Shown here: positions 2,788 to 13,602 of the stretch, piece after piece
Layout of the letters: the number at the start of each line of letters is the position of its first letter
Position numbering within the stretch: the first letter of the stretch is position 1
DNA from: Dictyostelium discoideum
Taxonomy: Eukaryota
Assembly: GCA_000004695.1 (NCBI GenBank)
Contig: CM000154.2
Span: 2,112,001 to 2,176,000, forward strand
Direction: 5' to 3'
Length of the DNA: 64,000 bases
Translations under genes and position numbers: made by a program
Notes under the pieces: model-generated
The model's input: the letters and a program-made list of their open reading frames with translations, nothing else
Database searches by the model: none
Told to the model about the DNA's origin: nothing

Positions 2788-5700
2788 TTATTTAACTGTA
2801 ACTCCTGTTGGTGAAGATTCTTTATTGTTATTTGATTTCTTTTCAACTCTTAATTCAATATCTTCACTTCCAATTGAGGAAGAAGATGATTTATCTTTAT
2901 CTTGTTCGATTAATCTTTCAATATCATCTTTTCTACCAGGTTTTGGACTTGTGGTCTTGGTTATAATTTTATTTGGTGGTGATAATAGACTATTGGTAGT
3001 GGTTGAAGTTGATGCTGGTGGGGATGTTTTTGTTGCGATTGTGGCAGTTGATGTTGAAACAAAACGTGGTGATACTGGATTAGTGGTGGTAGTAGGGGTT
3101 GACTTTGCCATAGTTGTTGCAGTTGATGTATAACGTGGTGATGAAGGATTAACTGATTTTGGATCATTTGATGAAGTTGGTGATATTGGAGTTGGTGATG
3201 TTGTTGTTGGTGATGTTGTTGTTGTTGGAGATAATTTTGAAATTGTAACTGGTGGTTTATTTACAGATGATGTTGTTGTTGAGGTTGTTGAAGTAACTGT
3301 TGGAGCAGTTTTATTGATTGTATTCGTTTCAGGTTTAGAAACTGTGGTTGATGTAGGTTTTGAGGCTGTTGCTGTTGAAATAGTTGCTGATGATTTCAAA
3401 GTTGGAGATATAGAAGGCTTAGCTGTAACTGTTGATGTTGGTGATAATGATGATGATGTTGGTGATTTTGGTGAAACTACTGATGTCGTTGTTTTATTTT
3501 CAGTTGGTGATGCTGATGGTTTAGCGACAGCTGTAGTTGTAGTAGTGGTGGTGGTTGGTGAAATTGGTGATTTTGGTGAAACTACTGATGTCGTTTTATT
3601 TTCAGTTGGTGATGTAGTTGGTGTTGTTGAGAGTGGTTTATTTACAGTTGCTGTAGATTTACTTGTTGCAATGGTTGAAGTTGTTGTTGTTGTTGCTGCT
3701 GCAGCAGGCTTATTAAATGTTGCAGCTATTTTACTAATATTAACGGGTGGTACAACTGTAGTGGTGGGTTTGTTAATTGTTGATGTGGTAGTAGTTGTTG
3801 TACCAACAGTAGCAGCAGCAGGTTTATTGGTTACAGTAGTAGCAGCAGGTTTATTGGTTACAGTAGTAGCAGCAGGTTTATTGGTCACAGTAGTAGTGGC
3901 AGGTTTATTGATTATATTAGTATTAGCAGCAGCAGGTTTGTTGGTTACAGTAGCAGCAGGCTTATTAGTTACAATAGTATCAGCCGGTTTACTGATAGAA
4001 GTCGTATTTGTAATTGGAGTAGTGGCAGCAGGCTTATTAAATGCTGCAGCAAGTTTATTTATATTAGAAGAGGGAGTAGATGGTGCAGTTGATGGTATAG
4101 TTGGTTTATTAATAGTGGTTGATACTGGTTTTGGTGAAATTGTTGTTTTATTTACATTGGTTGTTGATGGTGGTGATGATGATGATGATGATGATACATT
4201 CTCTACTGGTTTGTTGCTATCAGAAGTTGAAATTTTTTCAACTATTGGCGGCGAAGTTTTAATACTTTCTGATGATTTAACTAAAGTGGATGGTTTAATA
4301 ACACTATTTTCATTTTCAACTTTTGGAGTTGGAGGTCTATGAACAGGTGCTTTAGTACCCTCTGATGATTTATTCAAATTACTAATTGGTGTTGATGAAG
4401 TTAAACTTATTGGTGAGGTAATTGGACTTACAGAGTTTGTAGTTGTATTGGAACCACTAATTAATGGAGAGGTGGTAGTTGTAGTAGTGGTTGTGGTTGT
4501 GGTAGTTGTAGTAGTAGTGACTAAAGATGCTATTGTTGATGGTGAAGATAGTGATAGAGATGGAGATGAAGATGGTGGTTGTGATTTCTCATCAGTTTGA
4601 GAGATAACAATTGGTAAGACAATTTTTTCTTCAGTCGTAGTGGTTGTTGAAGAAGAGGATGATGATGATGATGTTGAAACTGGTTGTGATAATTCAGGTG
4701 ATACAATTAATTCTTTTACCTTTTCTTTTTCTTTTTCTTTTTCTTTTTCAGTCTCTTTTTCTTTTACAGTCTCTATTTCTTCTTTTTCTTTTTCAGTCTC
4801 TATTTCTTTTTCTAATTTTTCTTCCTCTTTTTCTACATTCTTTTCTCTCTTTATCACTACCTTTTCTTGGTTTACCTTTTCTACAAACTCTTTTTCAGAT
4901 TCTTTTTCCTTTTCTTTTTCAATTTCTTTGTTATCTTTCTTTTCATGTTGTTCTGATTCTTTTGATGGTGTTATTTGTATTGGTGGTGATGATTCTGGTT
5001 GTGATTGTGATGTCTCTGTTATAATTATTGGAGTTGGTAATGAGGTAATTGATCTTTCTTTTACAACCAATCCCTCATCTTCTTCTTTTGGTTTTTCTTC
5101 TTTTTGTTGTTGTTGTTGTTGTTGTTTTAGTTGATCCATTCTATTATTTGTACCAATGAATTCTTCATCCAATTTACTTTGATCAGAGAAATCGATTGGA
5201 GTTGAATGGGCAATTGTCATTCTTCTTGAAGGTGGTTTAACACTTAACCTCTTTGCCCTGTCTCTTGTTGGGTGTGATAATAATGATGAATTTGCTTTTG
5301 CTTCTTCCTCAGTGACTGGTTGTATTGGTTTAACAGGACTATTATTATTACTATTTGAACCTTGTACAATCATACTACCTCCACCTCTTGCGAATCCTGG
5401 ATTACCACCCATACCAATCAAACCCTCTAATTTTGATGCAAATTCAGAATTCTTTTTAATTGGACTTGAACCACTAACTTTATTATTTGGTATGGCTATT
5501 GAATTTCTGTATGTTATTTTATTAGGTGATCCTGATAAACCACCAATATTATTATTACTATTATTATTATTATTATTATTATTACTAACACCCATATTAT
5601 GTTGAGTTGGTGGAATAATTGGAACAAATGAATGTCTTTTATTTGGTGAAGGTTTATTTGAAGTTGGTGTTATTAAATTTTTAACTGGGGTTGTAGTTGA

Positions 5701-7307: not shown

Positions 7308-8353
7308 ATGGGATTAGATGAAAATGAAATAATTAATAATGATTGTAACATTGGAAATGACAATAATAATAATAGTAATATTATATTGAATAGACAATTA
7401 GTTGTAATAGTAACAGGTAGTAGTGATGGTTTAGGTAAAGTTGTTTCTGGAATGCTTGCCAAAACCAATTATTTTGTAATTTTAGCAAATAGAGATTTAA
7501 TTAAAGCTAAATTAGTATTGGATGAAATTTTATCAACAACACCAAATAACAAAAATGTAATTTCAATGAAATTGGATTTATCATCATTTGATTCAATTAA
7601 AGAATTTGTAAATCAATTTGAAAAATTAAATTTACAATTAGATGTTTTAATTAATAATGCTGGAATTTACACACCACCATTTTCATTGCCAGAAGGTTTT
7701 GAAAGTCAATTAATGGTAAATCATCTTGGTCCATTTTTATTAACAAATTTATTAATTAATAAATTTACAGAGTAAATATAAAATATAATAATTTTTCAAT
7801 AATATTTATTATTAATTATTAATTATTAATTATTTTTTTACTTTTTTAAAAAAAATTATATAGGAATGCAAGAATTATAAATTTATCAAGTATTGCACAT
7901 AAAAATTCAGAAATATTCAATGTTGAAGATTTATCATGTAAATCAATTGATAGTTATAATGCAATAAAGAGATATTCAAATTCAAAATTATATGCAATTT
8001 TATTTACAAAAGAGTTGAATAGAATTTTCAAGAAAAACAATTCAAAAATCATTGCATTATCATTACATCCAGGTGTTATTAGTACGACAAATTTATTTAA
8101 AAATATACCAAATTATATAAAACTATTATTAACTATATCAAAACCATTCACAACGACAATTAATACAGCTTCAACTGCAATCTATCGTTTAGCAGTTGGT
8201 GCTGATCCAGAATTACCATTATTAACTGGTGGTGAATATTTTAATATTAATGTACTTGTTGATCCAATACCTCAAGCTTTATCACAAGAGAATTGGAGAT
8301 TATTATGGGCAAAAAGTTGTGAATATTGTAAAATTGATGACATTGGAAAATAA
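7308..8353 (+). CDS. Short-chain dehydrogenase/reductase (SDR) family oxidoreductase, two exons (7308..7771, 7864..8353), about 317 aa
   Basis: It carries the TGSSDGLG (TGxxxGxG) NAD(P)-binding motif, an NNAG motif, and a YSNSK (YxxxK) catalytic motif in exon 2. A GTAAAT donor at 7772 and a TATATAG acceptor at 7861-7863 give a phase-2 junction that rebuilds ...KFTE|NARIINLSSIAH... (a typical SDR N-A-R-I-x-N-x-S-S segment). The stop is TAA 8351-8353. Confidence 0.8.
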
Positions 8354-8575
8354 AAATTTTAAAATCTGATATTTAATTTTTATTTTATTTTATTTATACA
8401 TAAAAATAAAAATAAAAATAAAATAAAAATAAAAATAAAAAAAAGAATTATTAATTCTTTAAATTGATTAAATTAAATAGTTTTTTTTATTTTTATAAAT
8501 AATAAAAGATTTGAAAAGTAAAAATTTTTAAATAGAAATTATATAAGATTTTGAAAGAGAGAGTAAAAATTTAAA

Positions 8576-10433
8576 ACTATTGAGGTGCTTCAAAGAGAGC
8601 ATTTTCACCACCATTATTTGATTGTTGATACAATGGATTTGCATTACTACTTGCAAATACTTGTCCTTGATTCGCTTTCCAATGATCATATCCTTTTTTA
8701 CCAGCAAACTAAAAAAAAAAAAAAAATTAGTTAATTATTATTAAAAATTTTGGAATAAAAATTAAAAAAAAAAAATATTTACAATTGCAGCACCTAAAAC
8801 AACAGCACCTACTACAACAACAGAAGCAACAACAGCAGTTGAAACTATTGCACCAGTTTGGCAAATAAATGGTTTAGGATCATAATCTACAGATTTACAT
8901 TTACCAGGTTCAGTTGCAGTTGCATTAACACAAACACCACTTTGACACTTTGAATTATCAGGTGAGCAACGTTTTTCAAAAGTTATACAACCAATAGCTT
9001 CATCACATTGGGAAACTAAACAGAAAGCAGTTGAATTACAAACACGTGGTACAAGTGTACAACCTTTAACACTATCACAAACACCAACTTGACAATTACC
9101 ACTATTTGGACATACCACTGGTTTTGAAACACAACCTTTATTAGTATCACAAGTATATACTAAACATTTATCAGTGGTTGGACATGAAACTGTCTTATTT
9201 GAACATTCACCTTGATTTATATTTGTAGCTGCAGCAACACAAATATTATCAGTACATTCATTACCATCTTGACATTCATTATTTGTTGGTGAACATGAGC
9301 CAGTGGTTGTATTGCATTTCATACAACCTGTACATTTTGTAGTTATATTATGGGTTATTAAACCAGTGGTTTCATCACAATGGTCATCGGTACATGGATT
9401 ACCATCATCAATTTCATCTAATGGAAGTGGTGAACATACTGATGTACCATTTGAAGCGGTAACACAATTATTCTTTTGACATTTATTTAATACACAACCA
9501 CATGAACAAACTGATGGATCTAATTTCTTTATTGTACATACACCAGCATTACAAACATTTTGTTCACATGAATCTGGACCTTGTTTACATAATGGTTGAG
9601 AAACACAGCCACTATTAATATCACAATAATAGACTTTGCATGGATCATTACCCAATTCAGCTGCACAAGTACTATTTGATTTGGTTTGACATTGGCCATT
9701 TGAACAAGCACCTGTATTACATGGATTATGAGCTGAAGTACATGATGAAGTATACAAACATCCACTTGATGGGTCACATGGTTTTAATGTTAAACATTGA
9801 GATGATTTATCATCACATTTAATTGATGTTGGTGTACATTGACCACTTTTAGAATCACATGTATTATTTGTACACATATCAATTGATGGACATGATACTG
9901 GTGCATGTTGACAAAGATCTGAAATTGAAAACCCTGCTGGAATAATTGTATCACGTGGTGGGCATGAATCAATTGTACATAAATCACCATCATTACAATT
10001 TACTACTGGATCACAACAAGTTGAACCATCACCATAACAAACACCACAATAATCATAAAACTATATTTTAAAAATTAAAAAAATTAAAATTTAAAATTAA
10101 AATTATTGTTATTATTTTAAAATATTATATACATATAATCAATTTTTTTTACTTACTGGACAATATGCTTGAATTGAAGTTTCAATTCTAATTGTTGATT
10201 TGGTTGTATGTCTTTCACAATAAAAGAAATCAAATGTATAATCTTTATTTTTTGTTAAACCCAATGTTGTTAAATCAATATTCTTACCTGCAGCTTCATG
10301 AAGACCACCCAAATCAATAACTAATTGATCATTGATAAATACCCATACATCATCATCACCAACAAAATAAAATACTTCATTACCAGTATATGTAAAACGT
10401 GTATTTATCTAAAAATTTTAATTATATTAGATT

Positions 10434-10471
<38 letters not shown>

Positions 10472-10979
10472 GAAATCAATAATTACTTTTAAACAAAAAT
10501 GGAAATTATGATAATCAGTTCCATCTGTATAATTACGATAAAATGGATTTGTATCAAAACCTTGATAATCAACTAAAATTATTATTTATTTTAAAATAGA
10601 AAAATAAAATAAAATAAAAATTAATAATTAATTTAATTATATAATAAAATTTTTTAAAAAGTTTTAAATTTACTTACTTGGGAAAAAGAATTGATTATCA
10701 TAAACATAAGTACCAGTTGATGGATTCAAAGTTAAATTTACAGTCATTGGGATTGGGAAATTTGCACCAGAATTATTTGTTAATGGAGCATTTTTATTTG
10801 GTTGATAGAAATATTGGAATAAACTTGGAGTTACCATTCTTCCCATTACATTTGTTGTTGTAAATGGCAATAATGTATTTAATGTTGGAGTTCTTGTAGT
10901 TGTATTGATTGCATTTTGGACAAGTCTAGTTGTTAATGAACCTGCAATTGGTTCAAAATTATTATCATAATCTATATTT

Positions 10980-11021
<42 letters not shown>

Positions 11022-11203
11022 TTATAATTAATTTATTTTTTTAATAATTGTAAATTTAAAAAATATAAAAATATTATTTACTTACATGGATATTGATCAT
11101 ATATAGTTCCCTCTAATTTTAAAGTTGTGGCTTGTGTTGTTGATTGGGAATTTATAAAATTAACCAAACTAAATAATATTAGTAAATTGAATATTATTTT
11201 CAT
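8576..11203 (-). CDS. psi-family (PA14 domain) cysteine-rich type-I membrane glycoprotein. Exons on minus: 11086..11203, 10678..10971, 10487..10572, 10157..10408, 8783..10060, plus a probable terminal exon 8576..8707. About 719 aa.
   Basis: Exon 1 is a signal peptide ([20 protein letters not shown]...). Exons 2-4 encode a PA14 domain (…[34 protein letters not shown]…). The large exon holds many C-x-C/C-x-x-C repeats and then a TM helix ([23 protein letters not shown]). All junction phases were checked by hand (1,1,0,0), and every donor is GTAAGT or GTAATT. The last 44 codons ([14 protein letters not shown]...EAPQ*) are reached through a 75-nt GTAAAT..TTTTAG intron. Without that intron the ORF stops at 8762 (…IVNIFFF*). 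The architecture matches the Dictyostelium psiA-psiR family. Confidence 0.75.
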
Positions 11204-12170
11204 TTTTTTATTTTTTAAAAAATAATAAAAATTTTAATAAATTTAGGATTTTATTATAACCCAAATCCAATATATGTAATATATTATAAATAAATTTAAA
11301 AATTATAAAGGATTTTTTTTTTTTTTTTTGGTTTTTTTTTTTTTTTTTTTTTAGAAAATAATTTTTTAATTATTAATAAAATTTTTTAATTGATTTTATT
11401 TTAAAATGATCAATTTATTTTTAATTTATTGGAGGAAAAAAAATAAAAGAAAAAATAAAAAAATAAAAAAATAATCAAATTAAAAAAAAAAAAAAAAAAA
11501 AAGAAAAGGAAAAAAAAAAAAAAAAAGGAAAAAAAATAATAAAAAAAATAAAAAAATCTGAACTGTGTAAATAAATTTATTTTTGATGTTATTAACAAAC
11601 TTATTATGATAAAAAAAACAAATCAAAAATTGACCATATGTATTAAATTTTTTGTACAATACTATTATTTATATTGGTATCAAAATTTCTTTAACTCTGA
11701 AATTCTACATGTTTTTTTGTGTTACCCCAATATATATAAATAAATAAAAAAAAAAAATAAAAAAAAAACTTACTAAAAATTTACCTTTATAACATCAATG
11801 GAATCATTAATTGTGTTCTGAAAATCCAACATATCAAAAGTTAATTTAACCCCATCCAATTTATTATTTAATAAAAAAAAGGAAAAAAAAAAAAAAATGA
11901 AAATATTTTTTTTTTTTTTTTTATCAAAACTCCATAGAGTTAAAAATAGAATTTGTGGTTAAAAAAAAGACTTAATGTTTGAAATTTTTTTTTTTTTTTT
12001 ATTATTTTTTTTATTAAAAAACAAATTGTATTTTAATCATCGAGATTTACAAAACGATAAATATCTCAGATTCAAAATTAGTGATAATAAAAAAAAAAAA
12101 AAAAAAATAATAAAATTGGTAAATGATTTTAATTTTTATGTGTTATGTTTAATTAAATTAATTTAAATAA

Positions 12171-12477: not shown

Positions 12478-13149
12478 TTATTGAACATTAATTGTTGTTG
12501 ATTTAACATAACTATTTTTTGGAATACTAATTTCTAAAATACCATTATTCATAATAGCTTTAATTAAAGAAACATCAATATCTTCAGGTAATTTAATTGA
12601 TTTTTTAAATTCCATTAATGATTGATGTTGTGATTCTACTTGTTGATTATTTGATGATGGTTGTTGAATGGTTGTATTTTTATTTAAAGCATCAATATTT
12701 AATAAACCATTTGAAAAATCAATTTTAACATTTTCTTTTGAAAAACCTGGTAATTCTACTCTAATTTCAATTCCTTTATCAGATTCATTAATAAAGGTTT
12801 TTGGTGATCTAAATCCGCGAGTTTTTGAAAATTCATGTTCCCAATTATCAAAAATACTCTCAAATTTATCCATATATTGTTGACCACCATGACTATAATA
12901 GAAATGTCTAAAACATTCATTAAACTTATCGATTTTCTTTGAGAAACGATCTTCAAATTTAACTTGGAAAAAATATGGTTTGTTTGAATAATCATTAGTT
13001 TCACAAATACCTGATGATTGGGATGTTGATAATGTTGATGCTGTTGGTCTACCAAAATTACTTAAATTTGATTCTGGATAACCTCCTCTTCTACCACAGA
13101 GAAAAGCACGACGAAAGAAAAATGGTGTAGTTTTTGAAAGTTTATACAT
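12478..13149 (-). CDS. Small heat-shock protein (alpha-crystallin/HSP20 domain), HspG-like, about 223 aa
   Basis: It has an alpha-crystallin-domain-like C-terminus (GIEIRVELPGFSKENVKIDFSNGLLNIDALNK ... KLPEDIDVSLIKAIMNNGILEISIPK). The true start is the ATG at minus 13149 (MYKLSK...). The ORF-track start at 13323 reads through poly-A as KKKK/FFF junk. Confidence 0.75.
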   Translation of the reverse strand: MYKLSKTTPFFFRRAFLCGRRGGYPESNLSNFGRPTASTLSTSQSSGICETNDYSNKPYFFQVKFEDRFSKKIDKFNECFRHFYYSHGGQQYMDKFESIFDNWEHEFSKTRGFRSPKTFINESDKGIEIRVELPGFSKENVKIDFSNGLLNIDALNKNTTIQQPSSNNQQVESQHQSLMEFKKSIKLPEDIDVSLIKAIMNNGILEISIPKNSYVKSTTINVQ

Positions 13150-13264
13150 TTTTTTGTTTTGTTTTTTTTTTAAAAAAAAAAATATTGAAAAATAATTATT
13201 ATTATTATTATTTGAATGATGGAAATAAAATATGAATATAAAAAATAAAAAAAAATATTTATAT

Positions 13265-13303
<39 letters not shown>

Positions 13304-13602
13304 TAAAAATAAAAAAAAAACATATAAATGTAATTATTATGTTTAATTTTTCATTTAATTGATGATATTATTATTACATATTAATATAATATTTTAAAAT
13401 AATATGAAAATACAATAAAAAAATAAAATTAAAAATTCATAAAAATAAAAATTCAAAAAAAAAAAACAACAAATTTTGATGTGTTTATTTTAACACCCAA
13501 ATTTGTAAATTTTAAATACTGCGACATTTATTTTCTTTTTTTTGTATAGGGTCTCAAAAACTATTTTTAGATATTATATCAATACAAAATAATTATGTAT
13601 AT

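Follow-up and report, generated by a model that had tools for sequence, protein, structure and literature searches.

The psiI gene of Dictyostelium discoideum has six exons and probably encodes a membrane glycoprotein with a linear-motif docking or sorting tail

The minus-strand gene at positions 11203-8577 of the window (a 64,000-nucleotide stretch of the D. discoideum genome, contig CM000154.2) is best explained as psiI, with six exons that encode a type-I membrane glycoprotein ending in a linear-motif tail for docking or sorting. We put the probability of this reading at roughly 90%. The spliced product has 719 amino acids and is 100% identical, tail included, to psiI of D. discoideum AX4 (EAL62983.1, XP_636487.1, UniProt Q54I92, PSII_DICDI, DDB_G0288919). 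A preliminary description of this region had proposed a psi-family PA14 protein of type-I topology, and Pfam, homology to psi proteins, and the identity to psiI all agree with that. It had also called the tail exon "likely unannotated," which is mistaken, as the exact spliced protein is the reference psiI product (Q54I92). The tail exon is real and is already in the reference annotation of psiI, so the gene structure by itself adds nothing new.

The gene model, including its splices, is almost certainly correct. Translation begins with the ATG at 11203-11201. All five introns are GT..AG introns (114, 105, 78, 96, and 74 nt) with a GC content of 4-9%, and the exons have a GC content of 23-35%. 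The features are:

11086..11203, minus strand: exon 1, signal peptide and first mature residues (splice model; UniProt Q54I92 is labelled "Precursor")
10678..10971, minus strand: exon 2, with the start of PA14 near 10717 (splice model and Pfam PA14)
10487..10572, minus strand: exon 3, middle part of PA14 (splice model and Pfam PA14)
10157..10408, minus strand: exon 4, main part of PA14 (splice model and Pfam PA14)
8783..10060, minus strand: exon 5, end of PA14 (to about 10037), Cys-rich Dicty_CTDC-type stalk, and most of the transmembrane (TM) helix (about 8854-8783, amino acids 653-676)
8709..8782, minus strand: intron 5, 74 nt, GTAAAT...T-run plus AG, 6.8% GC, phase 0
8762..8764, minus strand: TAA, met only when intron 5 is retained (...IVNIFFF and stop)
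8577..8708, minus strand: exon 6, last TM residue and 42-amino-acid cytoplasmic tail, with the stop codon TAG at 8579-8577
8486..8491, minus strand: AATAAA, the first one 3' of the stop codon (86 nt away) and a likely poly(A) signal (pattern match only)

Intron 5 falls at the cytoplasmic end of the TM helix, between the codons for Ile676 and Phe677 (donor at 8782, acceptor ending at 8709). Without splicing, the frame finishes with ...AAIVNIFFF, and the raw ORF does stop just past the TM helix at 8762, as the preliminary description had stated. This stop might suggest that the tail exon is genuine but was missed by annotation, and that the catalogued protein ends right past the TM helix. One database product would fit: P0009, predicted from Logan contigs by gene calling of the prokaryotic kind, is the only one that ends with ...IVNIFFF. 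However, this explanation is refuted, and we give it practically no chance: the 719-amino-acid psiI is in both NCBI and UniProt, and the unspliced form of 682 amino acids is absent as a protein from both. Also, the three Logan contigs behind P0009 are 100% colinear with the genome and keep intron 4 as well, which implies that they are genomic DNA; we therefore rejected P0009 as an intron-retention isoform. As far as the evidence goes, the splicing of intron 5 appears to be constitutive. More broadly, when ORFs in Dictyostelium DNA are read naively, type-I membrane proteins are cut short at an intron within the TM helix, and P0009 is a public example.

The preliminary description had argued that the splice leads from a GTAAAT donor, in phase 0, onto an open block that is unlike its surroundings and unlikely to arise by chance. 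The block does stand out: its GC content is 34.9%, versus 6.8% in intron 5 and 7.5% in the 200 nt past the stop codon, and given the local non-coding composition, 43 open codons would arise by chance with a probability of about 0.03. Across the window, 10.5% of all 129-nt segments reach 35% GC. The earlier splice layout holds, and its translation of exon 6 has the same letters as ours, but three details needed correction: intron 5 has 74 nt instead of 75, the stop codon ends at 8577 instead of 8576, and exon 6 has 43 sense codons plus a stop instead of 44 codons.

Far stronger support for exon 6 comes from comparisons with relatives. When the tail was aligned to family members, as had been suggested, the exon proved to be strongly conserved in orthologs and paralogs; all of the orthologs keep it, and the changes are mostly synonymous. 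Intron 5 is at the identical codon boundary (ATT/GT..AG/TTT GCT GGT) in D. discoideum, D. citrinum, D. firmibasis, D. dimigraforme, and psiK, with lengths of 74, 100, 84, 136, and 91 nt and with sequences that cannot be aligned. This shared position, along with relatives that lack the intron, bears out the proposed phase-0 splice. The tail is also present in the independent annotations of D. citrinum, D. firmibasis, D. dimigraforme, and D. purpureum, and a 710-amino-acid relative is wholly encoded by one ORF (JGI contig L009).

We also considered whether psiI might end at 8762, with no tail, which would make the block of open frame at 8708-8580, with its higher GC content, a product of chance or a relic. 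The donor is GTAAAT in D. discoideum psiI, versus GTAAGT in the other species, which would fit. However, the amino acids of the block are conserved across four species with almost only synonymous change: in the tail exon, D. citrinum and D. dimigraforme differ by seven synonymous and no non-synonymous codon changes, and D. firmibasis and D. dimigraforme differ by nine and none. The position of the intron is conserved, but the read-through peptides past its donor show no conservation between species. Furthermore, no intron separates the TM helix from the tail peptide in relatives from D. purpureum, where both lie in one uninterrupted exon (a 153-codon ORF), and P. violaceum, where they are contiguous in one exon. 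A psiI without a tail is thus exceedingly improbable, and the comparisons decide firmly in favor of the splice.

By these data, psiI would be a type-I membrane glycoprotein with a signal peptide, a lectin-like PA14 domain, a Cys-rich stalk, one TM helix, and a cytoplasmic tail of 42 amino acids. PA14 (PF07691) matches amino acids 125-258 (E = 1.1e-19, 71 bits, cutoff 24) and is spread over exons 2-5. The match to Dicty_CTDC is below the Pfam threshold (25.6 versus 27 bits). Of the 64 cysteines, 61 are from exon 5. The N-terminus is hydrophobic, as expected for a signal peptide, and the strongest hydrophobic 19-mer is at amino acids 659-677, within a TM helix of about amino acids 653-677. A homology search returned 358 family matches, including psiK (E = 1.3e-212), psiB (E = 7.5e-114), and psiA (E = 1.8e-104). 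So, psiI has the psi-family features that we looked for: PA14, homology to named psi proteins, and a hydrophobic N-terminus with a Cys-rich region. It fits the membrane-anchored psi subgroup, in which a C-terminal TM helix is followed by a GKKGYDxWK...NPLY tail, with a variant second motif. psiK has the same architecture (PA14, Cys-rich stalk, TM helix, and tail), and PsiA (P0052) lacks the TM helix and the tail. The PsiI protein has been detected by mass spectrometry, with protein-level intensities that are highest at culmination and in the fruiting body (PMC12821622). Within the 64-kb window, tblastn returned psiI alone and no other psi paralogs.

In the membrane-anchored psi family, the tail has the layout GKKGYDxWK-x11-NPLY-x8-NPxY/F, with NPLY at +21 and NPxY/F at +33/34. 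In psiI, NPLY is at +21 from GKKGY and NALF is at +33:

8676..8702, minus strand: juxtamembrane GKKGYDHWK (family consensus GGKKGYDYWK; G11 and Y15 invariant)
8628..8639, minus strand: membrane-proximal NPLY, amino acids 700-703 (N, P, and Y invariant across the family)
8592..8603, minus strand: distal NALF, amino acids 712-715, where the family has its second NPxY/F (this site is degenerate in the psiI clade)

The tail with this fixed spacing was found in 60 of the 128 sequences retrieved, with G11, Y15, N32, P33, and Y35 invariant. The spacing of the invariant residues holds throughout Dictyostelia and extends to Variosea-type amoebae. Two NPx[YFWH] motifs are present in 48 of the 60 family tails; psiI has one NPxY (NPLY) and NALF. 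The preliminary description had suggested a structured tail, perhaps with a signaling or sorting motif. The tail does contain a recognizable NPxY docking or sorting motif, but instead of a folded domain, we found a short, low-complexity region of linear motifs.

The same tail occurs on other kinds of receptors: 7 of 38 further tail carriers are VWA+Dicty_CTDC proteins, which come from other amoebae. At the sequence level, then, the tail is a linear-motif cassette that the membrane-anchored psi proteins share with other amoebozoan receptors, and it is found on both PA14 and VWA/Sib-like types. Searching a word-indexed database with the tail profile returned only short ORFs (37-98 amino acids), which were uninformative about architecture, so we used an exhaustive representative search instead. 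Some of these short ORFs seemed to be isolated tail exons from metagenome contigs, and the others were bacterial peptides with NPLY repeats. Matches of the tail profile to RHS-repeat and CarboxypepD_reg proteins (P0290, P0297, P0244, P0278, and P0257) were internal bacterial repeats of NPLY type rather than C-terminal tails, and we set them aside as motif-level noise.

NPxY motifs could serve as docking sites for adaptors of the FERM/PTB type, such as talin. psiI would then link an ectodomain that binds carbohydrate to the actin machinery of the cell cortex, enter NPxY-dependent endocytic sorting, or both. It keeps the membrane-proximal NPLY that is expected to be critical for talin, and its distal site has relaxed to NxxF. 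The NPxY of psiI probably functions in adaptor docking or sorting; that the adaptor is talin in particular, or another FERM protein, is somewhat less than an even bet. In the literature searched, we found no link between a psi tail and NPxY or talin and no binding data for a psi tail. The possible link to talin is a modest lead.

The tail could instead be chiefly an endocytic or recycling signal, read by PTB/FERM proteins of the clathrin-adaptor or sorting-nexin type that set the surface level of PsiI, instead of a talin-actin link. NPxY is a classical internalization signal, established for the LDL receptor, which favors this idea. Similarly, chimeras with the TM helix and tail of SibA pass through early endocytic compartments, and sorting sets their surface level (PMC3279395). 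However, a double motif with the 8-residue spacing of integrins is closer to a talin/kindlin-type arrangement than to a single FxNPxY. We view a tail that acts chiefly in sorting as possible, at odds of perhaps one in three or a bit less, and the sorting and talin readings do not exclude each other.

Another potential explanation is that PsiI is mainly a shed extracellular factor, like PsiA, and that its TM helix and tail act only in delivery and are left behind as a stub. In its favor, PsiA acts as a secreted signal, and exposed signals are said to include psiF and psiN (PMC4931340). The density-sensing factor DPF, another single-pass protein of Dictyostelium, undergoes shedding, and the TM/cytoplasmic stub that remains influences cell-substratum adhesion (PMC6889452). 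Like psiI, DPF has one TM helix, which joins a large, glycosylated ectodomain to a short stretch in the cytoplasm (about 30 amino acids in DPF); it is, however, a different protein of 1483 amino acids, and we compare it as a functional precedent only (PMC6889452). PsiI also accumulates late in development, alongside matrix and spore-coat proteins. However, a mere stub does not explain why residues are invariant at fixed spacing from Dictyostelia to Variosea-type amoebae, and PsiA, which has neither the TM helix nor the tail, indicates that secretion does not need them. Shedding as the main role of PsiI thus seems unlikely.

Returning to the docking and sorting reading, the psi tails bear some likeness to the cytoplasmic domains of integrin beta subunits (beta1D, beta3, and beta7; 3g9w, 2l1c, and 2brq), which also belong to single-pass receptors and have NPxY-x8-NxxY/F near the C-terminus. 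All eight of the PDB sequences that match the tail profile at E <= 10 are integrin-beta tails, although none is individually significant (E = 0.12-0.9). They align with the same 8-residue spacing between the motifs and include the talin-bound beta1D tail (3g9w). Weak matches to Integrin_b_cyt (PF08725) were found for 31 of 42 family tails (best E = 0.003), but the tail of psiI itself does not match PF08725 even at E <= 10. In psi tails, the membrane-proximal HDRR/KE region of integrin beta is replaced by GKKGYDxWK, and the ectodomains are unrelated. The LLxxxHDRK/RE motif for pairing with the alpha subunit is absent from the psiI tail; it is also reported to be missing from amoebozoan ITGB homologs (bioRxiv 10.1101/2020.04.29.069435). 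Overall, the resemblance is weak and could reflect convergence on short motifs.

The Sib ("similar to integrin beta") adhesion receptors of Dictyostelium offer another comparison. SibA has two NPxY motifs, of which the membrane-proximal one is essential for binding talin A (PMC9197732). Talin A, together with myosin VII, is the documented reader of the SibA tail in Dictyostelium, and SibA transmits talin force (PMC9197732, PMC12686525). By their published descriptions (rather than by alignment), SibA-E resemble the membrane-anchored psi proteins: they are of type I, many residues of their TM helix are small, and their short tail is conserved and has two NPxY-type motifs (PMC9197732, PMC3279395). 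psiI differs in that it has PA14 instead of VWA and a distal NALF instead of a second NPxY; Pfam identified no VWA domain in psiI at E <= 0.01, whereas Sib proteins have one. A homology search seeded with a VWA-bearing tail carrier (P0314) returned only Planoprotostelium-type proteins and none of D. discoideum SibA-E.

We propose, tentatively and at less than even odds, that the membrane-anchored psi proteins, including psiI, could form a second, so far unrecognized class of dictyostelid surface receptors that couple to talin or FERM proteins. These would combine a PA14 lectin-type head with the stalk-TM-NPxY module of VWA (Sib-like) receptors and would act in adhesion to, and mechanosensing of, a carbohydrate matrix at culmination, rather than being just precursors of secreted "psi factor." No paper in the literature searched links psi proteins to a class of talin/FERM receptors. 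If the proposal is true, psi receptors could explain why talin A still localizes to adhesion spots when SibA is absent. Should psi tails bind talin in the way that the tail of SibA does, about 20 proteins now classed as "secreted differentiation factors" or "matrix proteins" would join the machinery for adhesion and force coupling.

Finally, a glycine-rich TM domain with GxxxG is a feature of the Sib family. The TM helix of psiI is 12% glycine and 44% glycine, alanine, or serine, and it lacks GxxxG. Across the psi-type tail carriers, the median is 20% glycine, with GxxxG in 28 of 60 sequences. Judging by these compositions, the TM helix of psiI would be less Sib-like than those of many of its paralogs.

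The gene analyzed here is psiI itself, which is already known. It lies in an extremely AT-rich window (22.6% GC overall), for whose encoded proteins D. discoideum is the match, and introns there are short and very AT-rich. Explicit assembly of psiI gave six exons, which are listed with the neighboring genes.

psiI exons and neighboring genes (window positions)
11203-11086, minus strand: psiI exon 1, with the ATG at 11203
10971-10678, minus strand: psiI exon 2
10572-10487, minus strand: psiI exon 3
10408-10157, minus strand: psiI exon 4
10060-8783, minus strand: psiI exon 5
8708-8577, minus strand: psiI exon 6 (tail), with TAG at 8579-8577
7308-8353, plus strand: two-exon short-chain dehydrogenase, convergent with psiI, with about 220 nt between the stops
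12478-13323, minus strand: ORF upstream of psiI whose C-terminal half resembles alpha-crystallin/small HSPs
2788-5595, minus strand: neighboring 935-aa ORF, low-complexity and Ser/Thr/Asn-rich

All five introns (114, 105, 78, 96, and 74 nt) are GT..AG, with a GC content of 4-9% versus 23-35% for the exons. The spliced coding sequence is 2160 nt (719 codons plus TAG), and an AATAAA lies 86 nt past the stop. The sequence observation in the preliminary description was confirmed and its coordinates were right overall, but the last intron is 74 nt, not 75, and the stop codon ends at 8577, not 8576. Pfam places a PA14 domain at amino acids 125-258 (E = 1.1e-19) and finds a Dicty_CTDC repeat just below threshold. 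Exon 5 encodes 61 of the 64 cysteines, and amino acids 659-677 form the strongest hydrophobic segment. A homology search identified 358 relatives, including psiK, psiB, and psiA, in Dictyostelium, Polysphondylium, Heterostelium, Acytostelium, Tieghemostelium, and Cavenderia; bacterial "fibro-slime" PA14 proteins are more distant matches, over the PA14 part only. There is no second copy of psiI within the 64-kb window.

The tail exon had been proposed to be unannotated, which is incorrect: an exact-sequence look-up identified the 719-aa spliced product as "Protein psiI" of D. discoideum AX4 (EAL62983.1, XP_636487.1, UniProt Q54I92), with identical proteins in several other D. discoideum-complex assemblies. 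As posed, the tail-exon finding is of low interest. Without the last splice, the frame does end at 8762, as described (TAA at 8764-8762), and the same look-up found no 682-aa unspliced product in the protein collection. The single database protein ending in ...IVNIFFF (P0009, 371 aa) comes from three Logan contigs. We rejected it as an intron-retaining transcript: because the contigs match the genome with 100% colinearity between 10231 and 8419 and keep intron 4 as well, they are genomic DNA in which an ORF was called in prokaryote style.

The last splice is in phase 0 and joins Ile676 (ATT, ending at 8783) to Phe677 (TTT, starting at 8708). The tail block has a GC content of 34.9%, while the flanking intron and 3' flank have 6.8% and 7.5%; 43 open codons would be expected by chance, in the local non-coding composition, with a probability of roughly 0.03. 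We compared the locus with the orthologs from D. citrinum, D. firmibasis, D. dimigraforme, and D. purpureum and with the D. discoideum paralog psiK. Conservation in paralogs, which the preliminary description had suggested checking, was evident: psiK and the first three orthologs have the intron at precisely the same codon boundary (...GCA ATT, then GTA(A/T)GT ... AG, then TTT GCT GGT AAR AAA GG...), with near-identical flanking exons. The introns themselves (100, 84, 136, and 91 nt in D. citrinum, D. firmibasis, D. dimigraforme, and psiK) cannot be aligned across loci. Most differences between species within the tail exon are synonymous: D. dimigraforme differs from D. citrinum by 7 synonymous changes and from D. 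firmibasis by 9, with no non-synonymous changes in either case; D. discoideum differs from each other species by 2-4 synonymous and 2 non-synonymous changes. Conservation between species does not extend to the read-through peptides. At the sequence level, we regard these comparisons as proof that the last splice is real, and they exclude a chance open frame. PsiI has also been detected by mass spectrometry, with a peak at culmination and in the fruiting body, although these are protein-level data only (PMC12821622).

The D. purpureum ortholog lacks the last intron, so that a single ORF of 153 codons encodes the stalk, TM helix, and tail. A P. violaceum homolog has no intron at the TM/tail boundary either (its last exon covers amino acids 164-706), and a 710-aa family member on JGI contig L009 is one uninterrupted ORF. 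Among the fetched loci, the boundary intron (8709-8782 in psiI) is present in L004, L005, L006, and L008 and absent from L007 and L011. psiK is 49% identical to psiI, and both carry the intron in the D. discoideum complex. Its presence in both genes but not in D. purpureum or P. violaceum implies that it was lost in those lineages or else gained in parallel.

The suggestion that the tail is conserved and carries a sorting or signaling motif was supported. In 60 of 128 retrieved sequences, the C terminus consists of a TM helix and then a tail cassette: G-K-K-G-Y-D-x-W-K, NPLY exactly 21 residues past the first G, and a second NPxY/F at +33 or +34. In an alignment of 42 tails, G11, Y15, N32, P33, and Y35 are invariant, and conservation reaches 90% or more at K12, G14, D16, L34, N44, and P45. 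The distal motif of psiI is NALF, which is unusual for the family but conserved among the D. discoideum-complex orthologs; the D. purpureum ortholog has NPLF. An exhaustive search of 1.84 billion representatives with a tail profile found 390 proteins at E ≤ 1e-3. In a set of 38 additional tail carriers 200 aa or longer, Dicty_CTDC repeats occur in 27, PA14 in 13, and a VWA domain in 7; the closest named relative of one VWA+CTDC carrier is from Planoprotostelium fungivorum. Since both PA14 and VWA proteins carry the tail, psi-type proteins (PA14) and Sib-like ones (VWA) on the amoebozoan cell surface have the stalk/TM/tail module in common.

Some of the matching sequences seem to be misannotated. 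P0293 (1506 aa) is a psi-like protein (PA14, a TM helix, and GKKGYDYWK...NANPF) that, around residues 640-730, passes directly into a family 63 glycosyl hydrolase; this does seem to be a mis-modelled psi-type tail, probably a gene-fusion misannotation with the tail cut at the first NPxY. Dozens of metagenome ORFs of 60-100 aa (P0129-P0161, on JGI/Logan contigs of 0.9-4 kb) consist of a Gly/Ala-rich TM helix and a GKKGYD..NPLY..NPLY tail. These probably represent last exons, or the 3' ends, of receptor genes from amoebozoans, called as stand-alone ORFs by prokaryotic gene finders.

The tails also weakly resemble those of beta integrins. Pfam's Integrin_b_cyt weakly matches 31 of the 42 family tails (best E = 0.003) but not the tail of psiI, which is not an integrin beta tail by Pfam criteria. 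At E ≤ 10, the family profile matches eight PDB sequences, all of them tails of integrin beta1D, beta3, or beta7, which align motif to motif with an identical 8-residue spacer (E = 0.12-0.9). Because these E values are individually insignificant and psiI's tail has no Pfam match, we suggest a functional resemblance at the motif level, and do not claim membership or demonstrated homology. As a lead, the integrin-like tail module that PA14 receptors share is modest and testable. The profile also matches small bacterial ORFs with MKK..TANDLQGITGG followed by several NNPLY repeats (P0162, P0171, and P0174), which resemble peptides bearing a double-glycine leader, and RHS-repeat and CarboxypepD_reg proteins with internal NPLY repeats (P0290, P0297, P0244, P0278, and P0257). 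Integrin_b_cyt matches P0162, P0171, P0244, P0278, and P0257 as well. The bacterial similarity is at the level of motif repeats and shows that NPLY repeats easily match PF08725 (Integrin_b_cyt).

NPxY is a docking site for PTB and FERM-F3 domains. On our preferred reading, PsiI is a type I surface receptor. Its ectodomain, with PA14 and the Cys-rich part, would interact with carbohydrate or matrix during late development. Its tail would serve to recruit an adaptor of the FERM/PTB kind, for which talin A with myosin VII is the most plausible candidate, to direct sorting through NPxY, or to do both. Of the two NPxY motifs in the tail of SibA, a Sib ("similar to integrin beta") adhesion receptor and the documented case in Dictyostelium, the membrane-proximal one is essential for binding talin A (PMC9197732), and the SibA-talin link transmits piconewton forces (PMC12686525). 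psiI keeps NPLY at this proximal position. psiI is not a Sib family member: it has no VWA domain and, going by published descriptions of that family, differs in having just one canonical NPxY. Its TM helix contains no GxxxG. In the literature searched, no paper connected psi tails with NPxY or talin. The tail might instead be mainly an endocytic sorting signal, which we hold as a tentative alternative: chimeras with the TM helix and tail of SibA are regulated by endocytic sorting (PMC3279395). A second, unlikely alternative is that PsiI is for the most part shed and leaves a stub behind; the unrelated factor DPF is shed in this way (PMC6889452). Both alternatives are compatible with PsiI being a surface receptor.

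psiI also has long homopolymer runs, which are typical of Dictyostelium non-coding DNA: poly-A of ~40 nt in intron 3 (10440-10480, minus strand), poly-T of ~35 nt in intron 1 (10985-11020, minus strand), and a poly-A run upstream of the ATG (11310-11350). They have no apparent tie to the tail exon. D. citrinum and D. firmibasis also have the adjacent short-chain dehydrogenase in a syntenic position. The D. firmibasis ortholog is annotated as a 685-aa protein that begins with MINIHVLYDNNF, without a signal peptide. Upstream of this start is a clear exon 1 homolog (L005, ~907-1014) that is followed by GTATGT and has ATT in place of the D. discoideum ATG, just past a long stretch of poly-A. Possible causes are loss of the start codon, an assembly error at the homopolymer, and misannotation of the 5' end.
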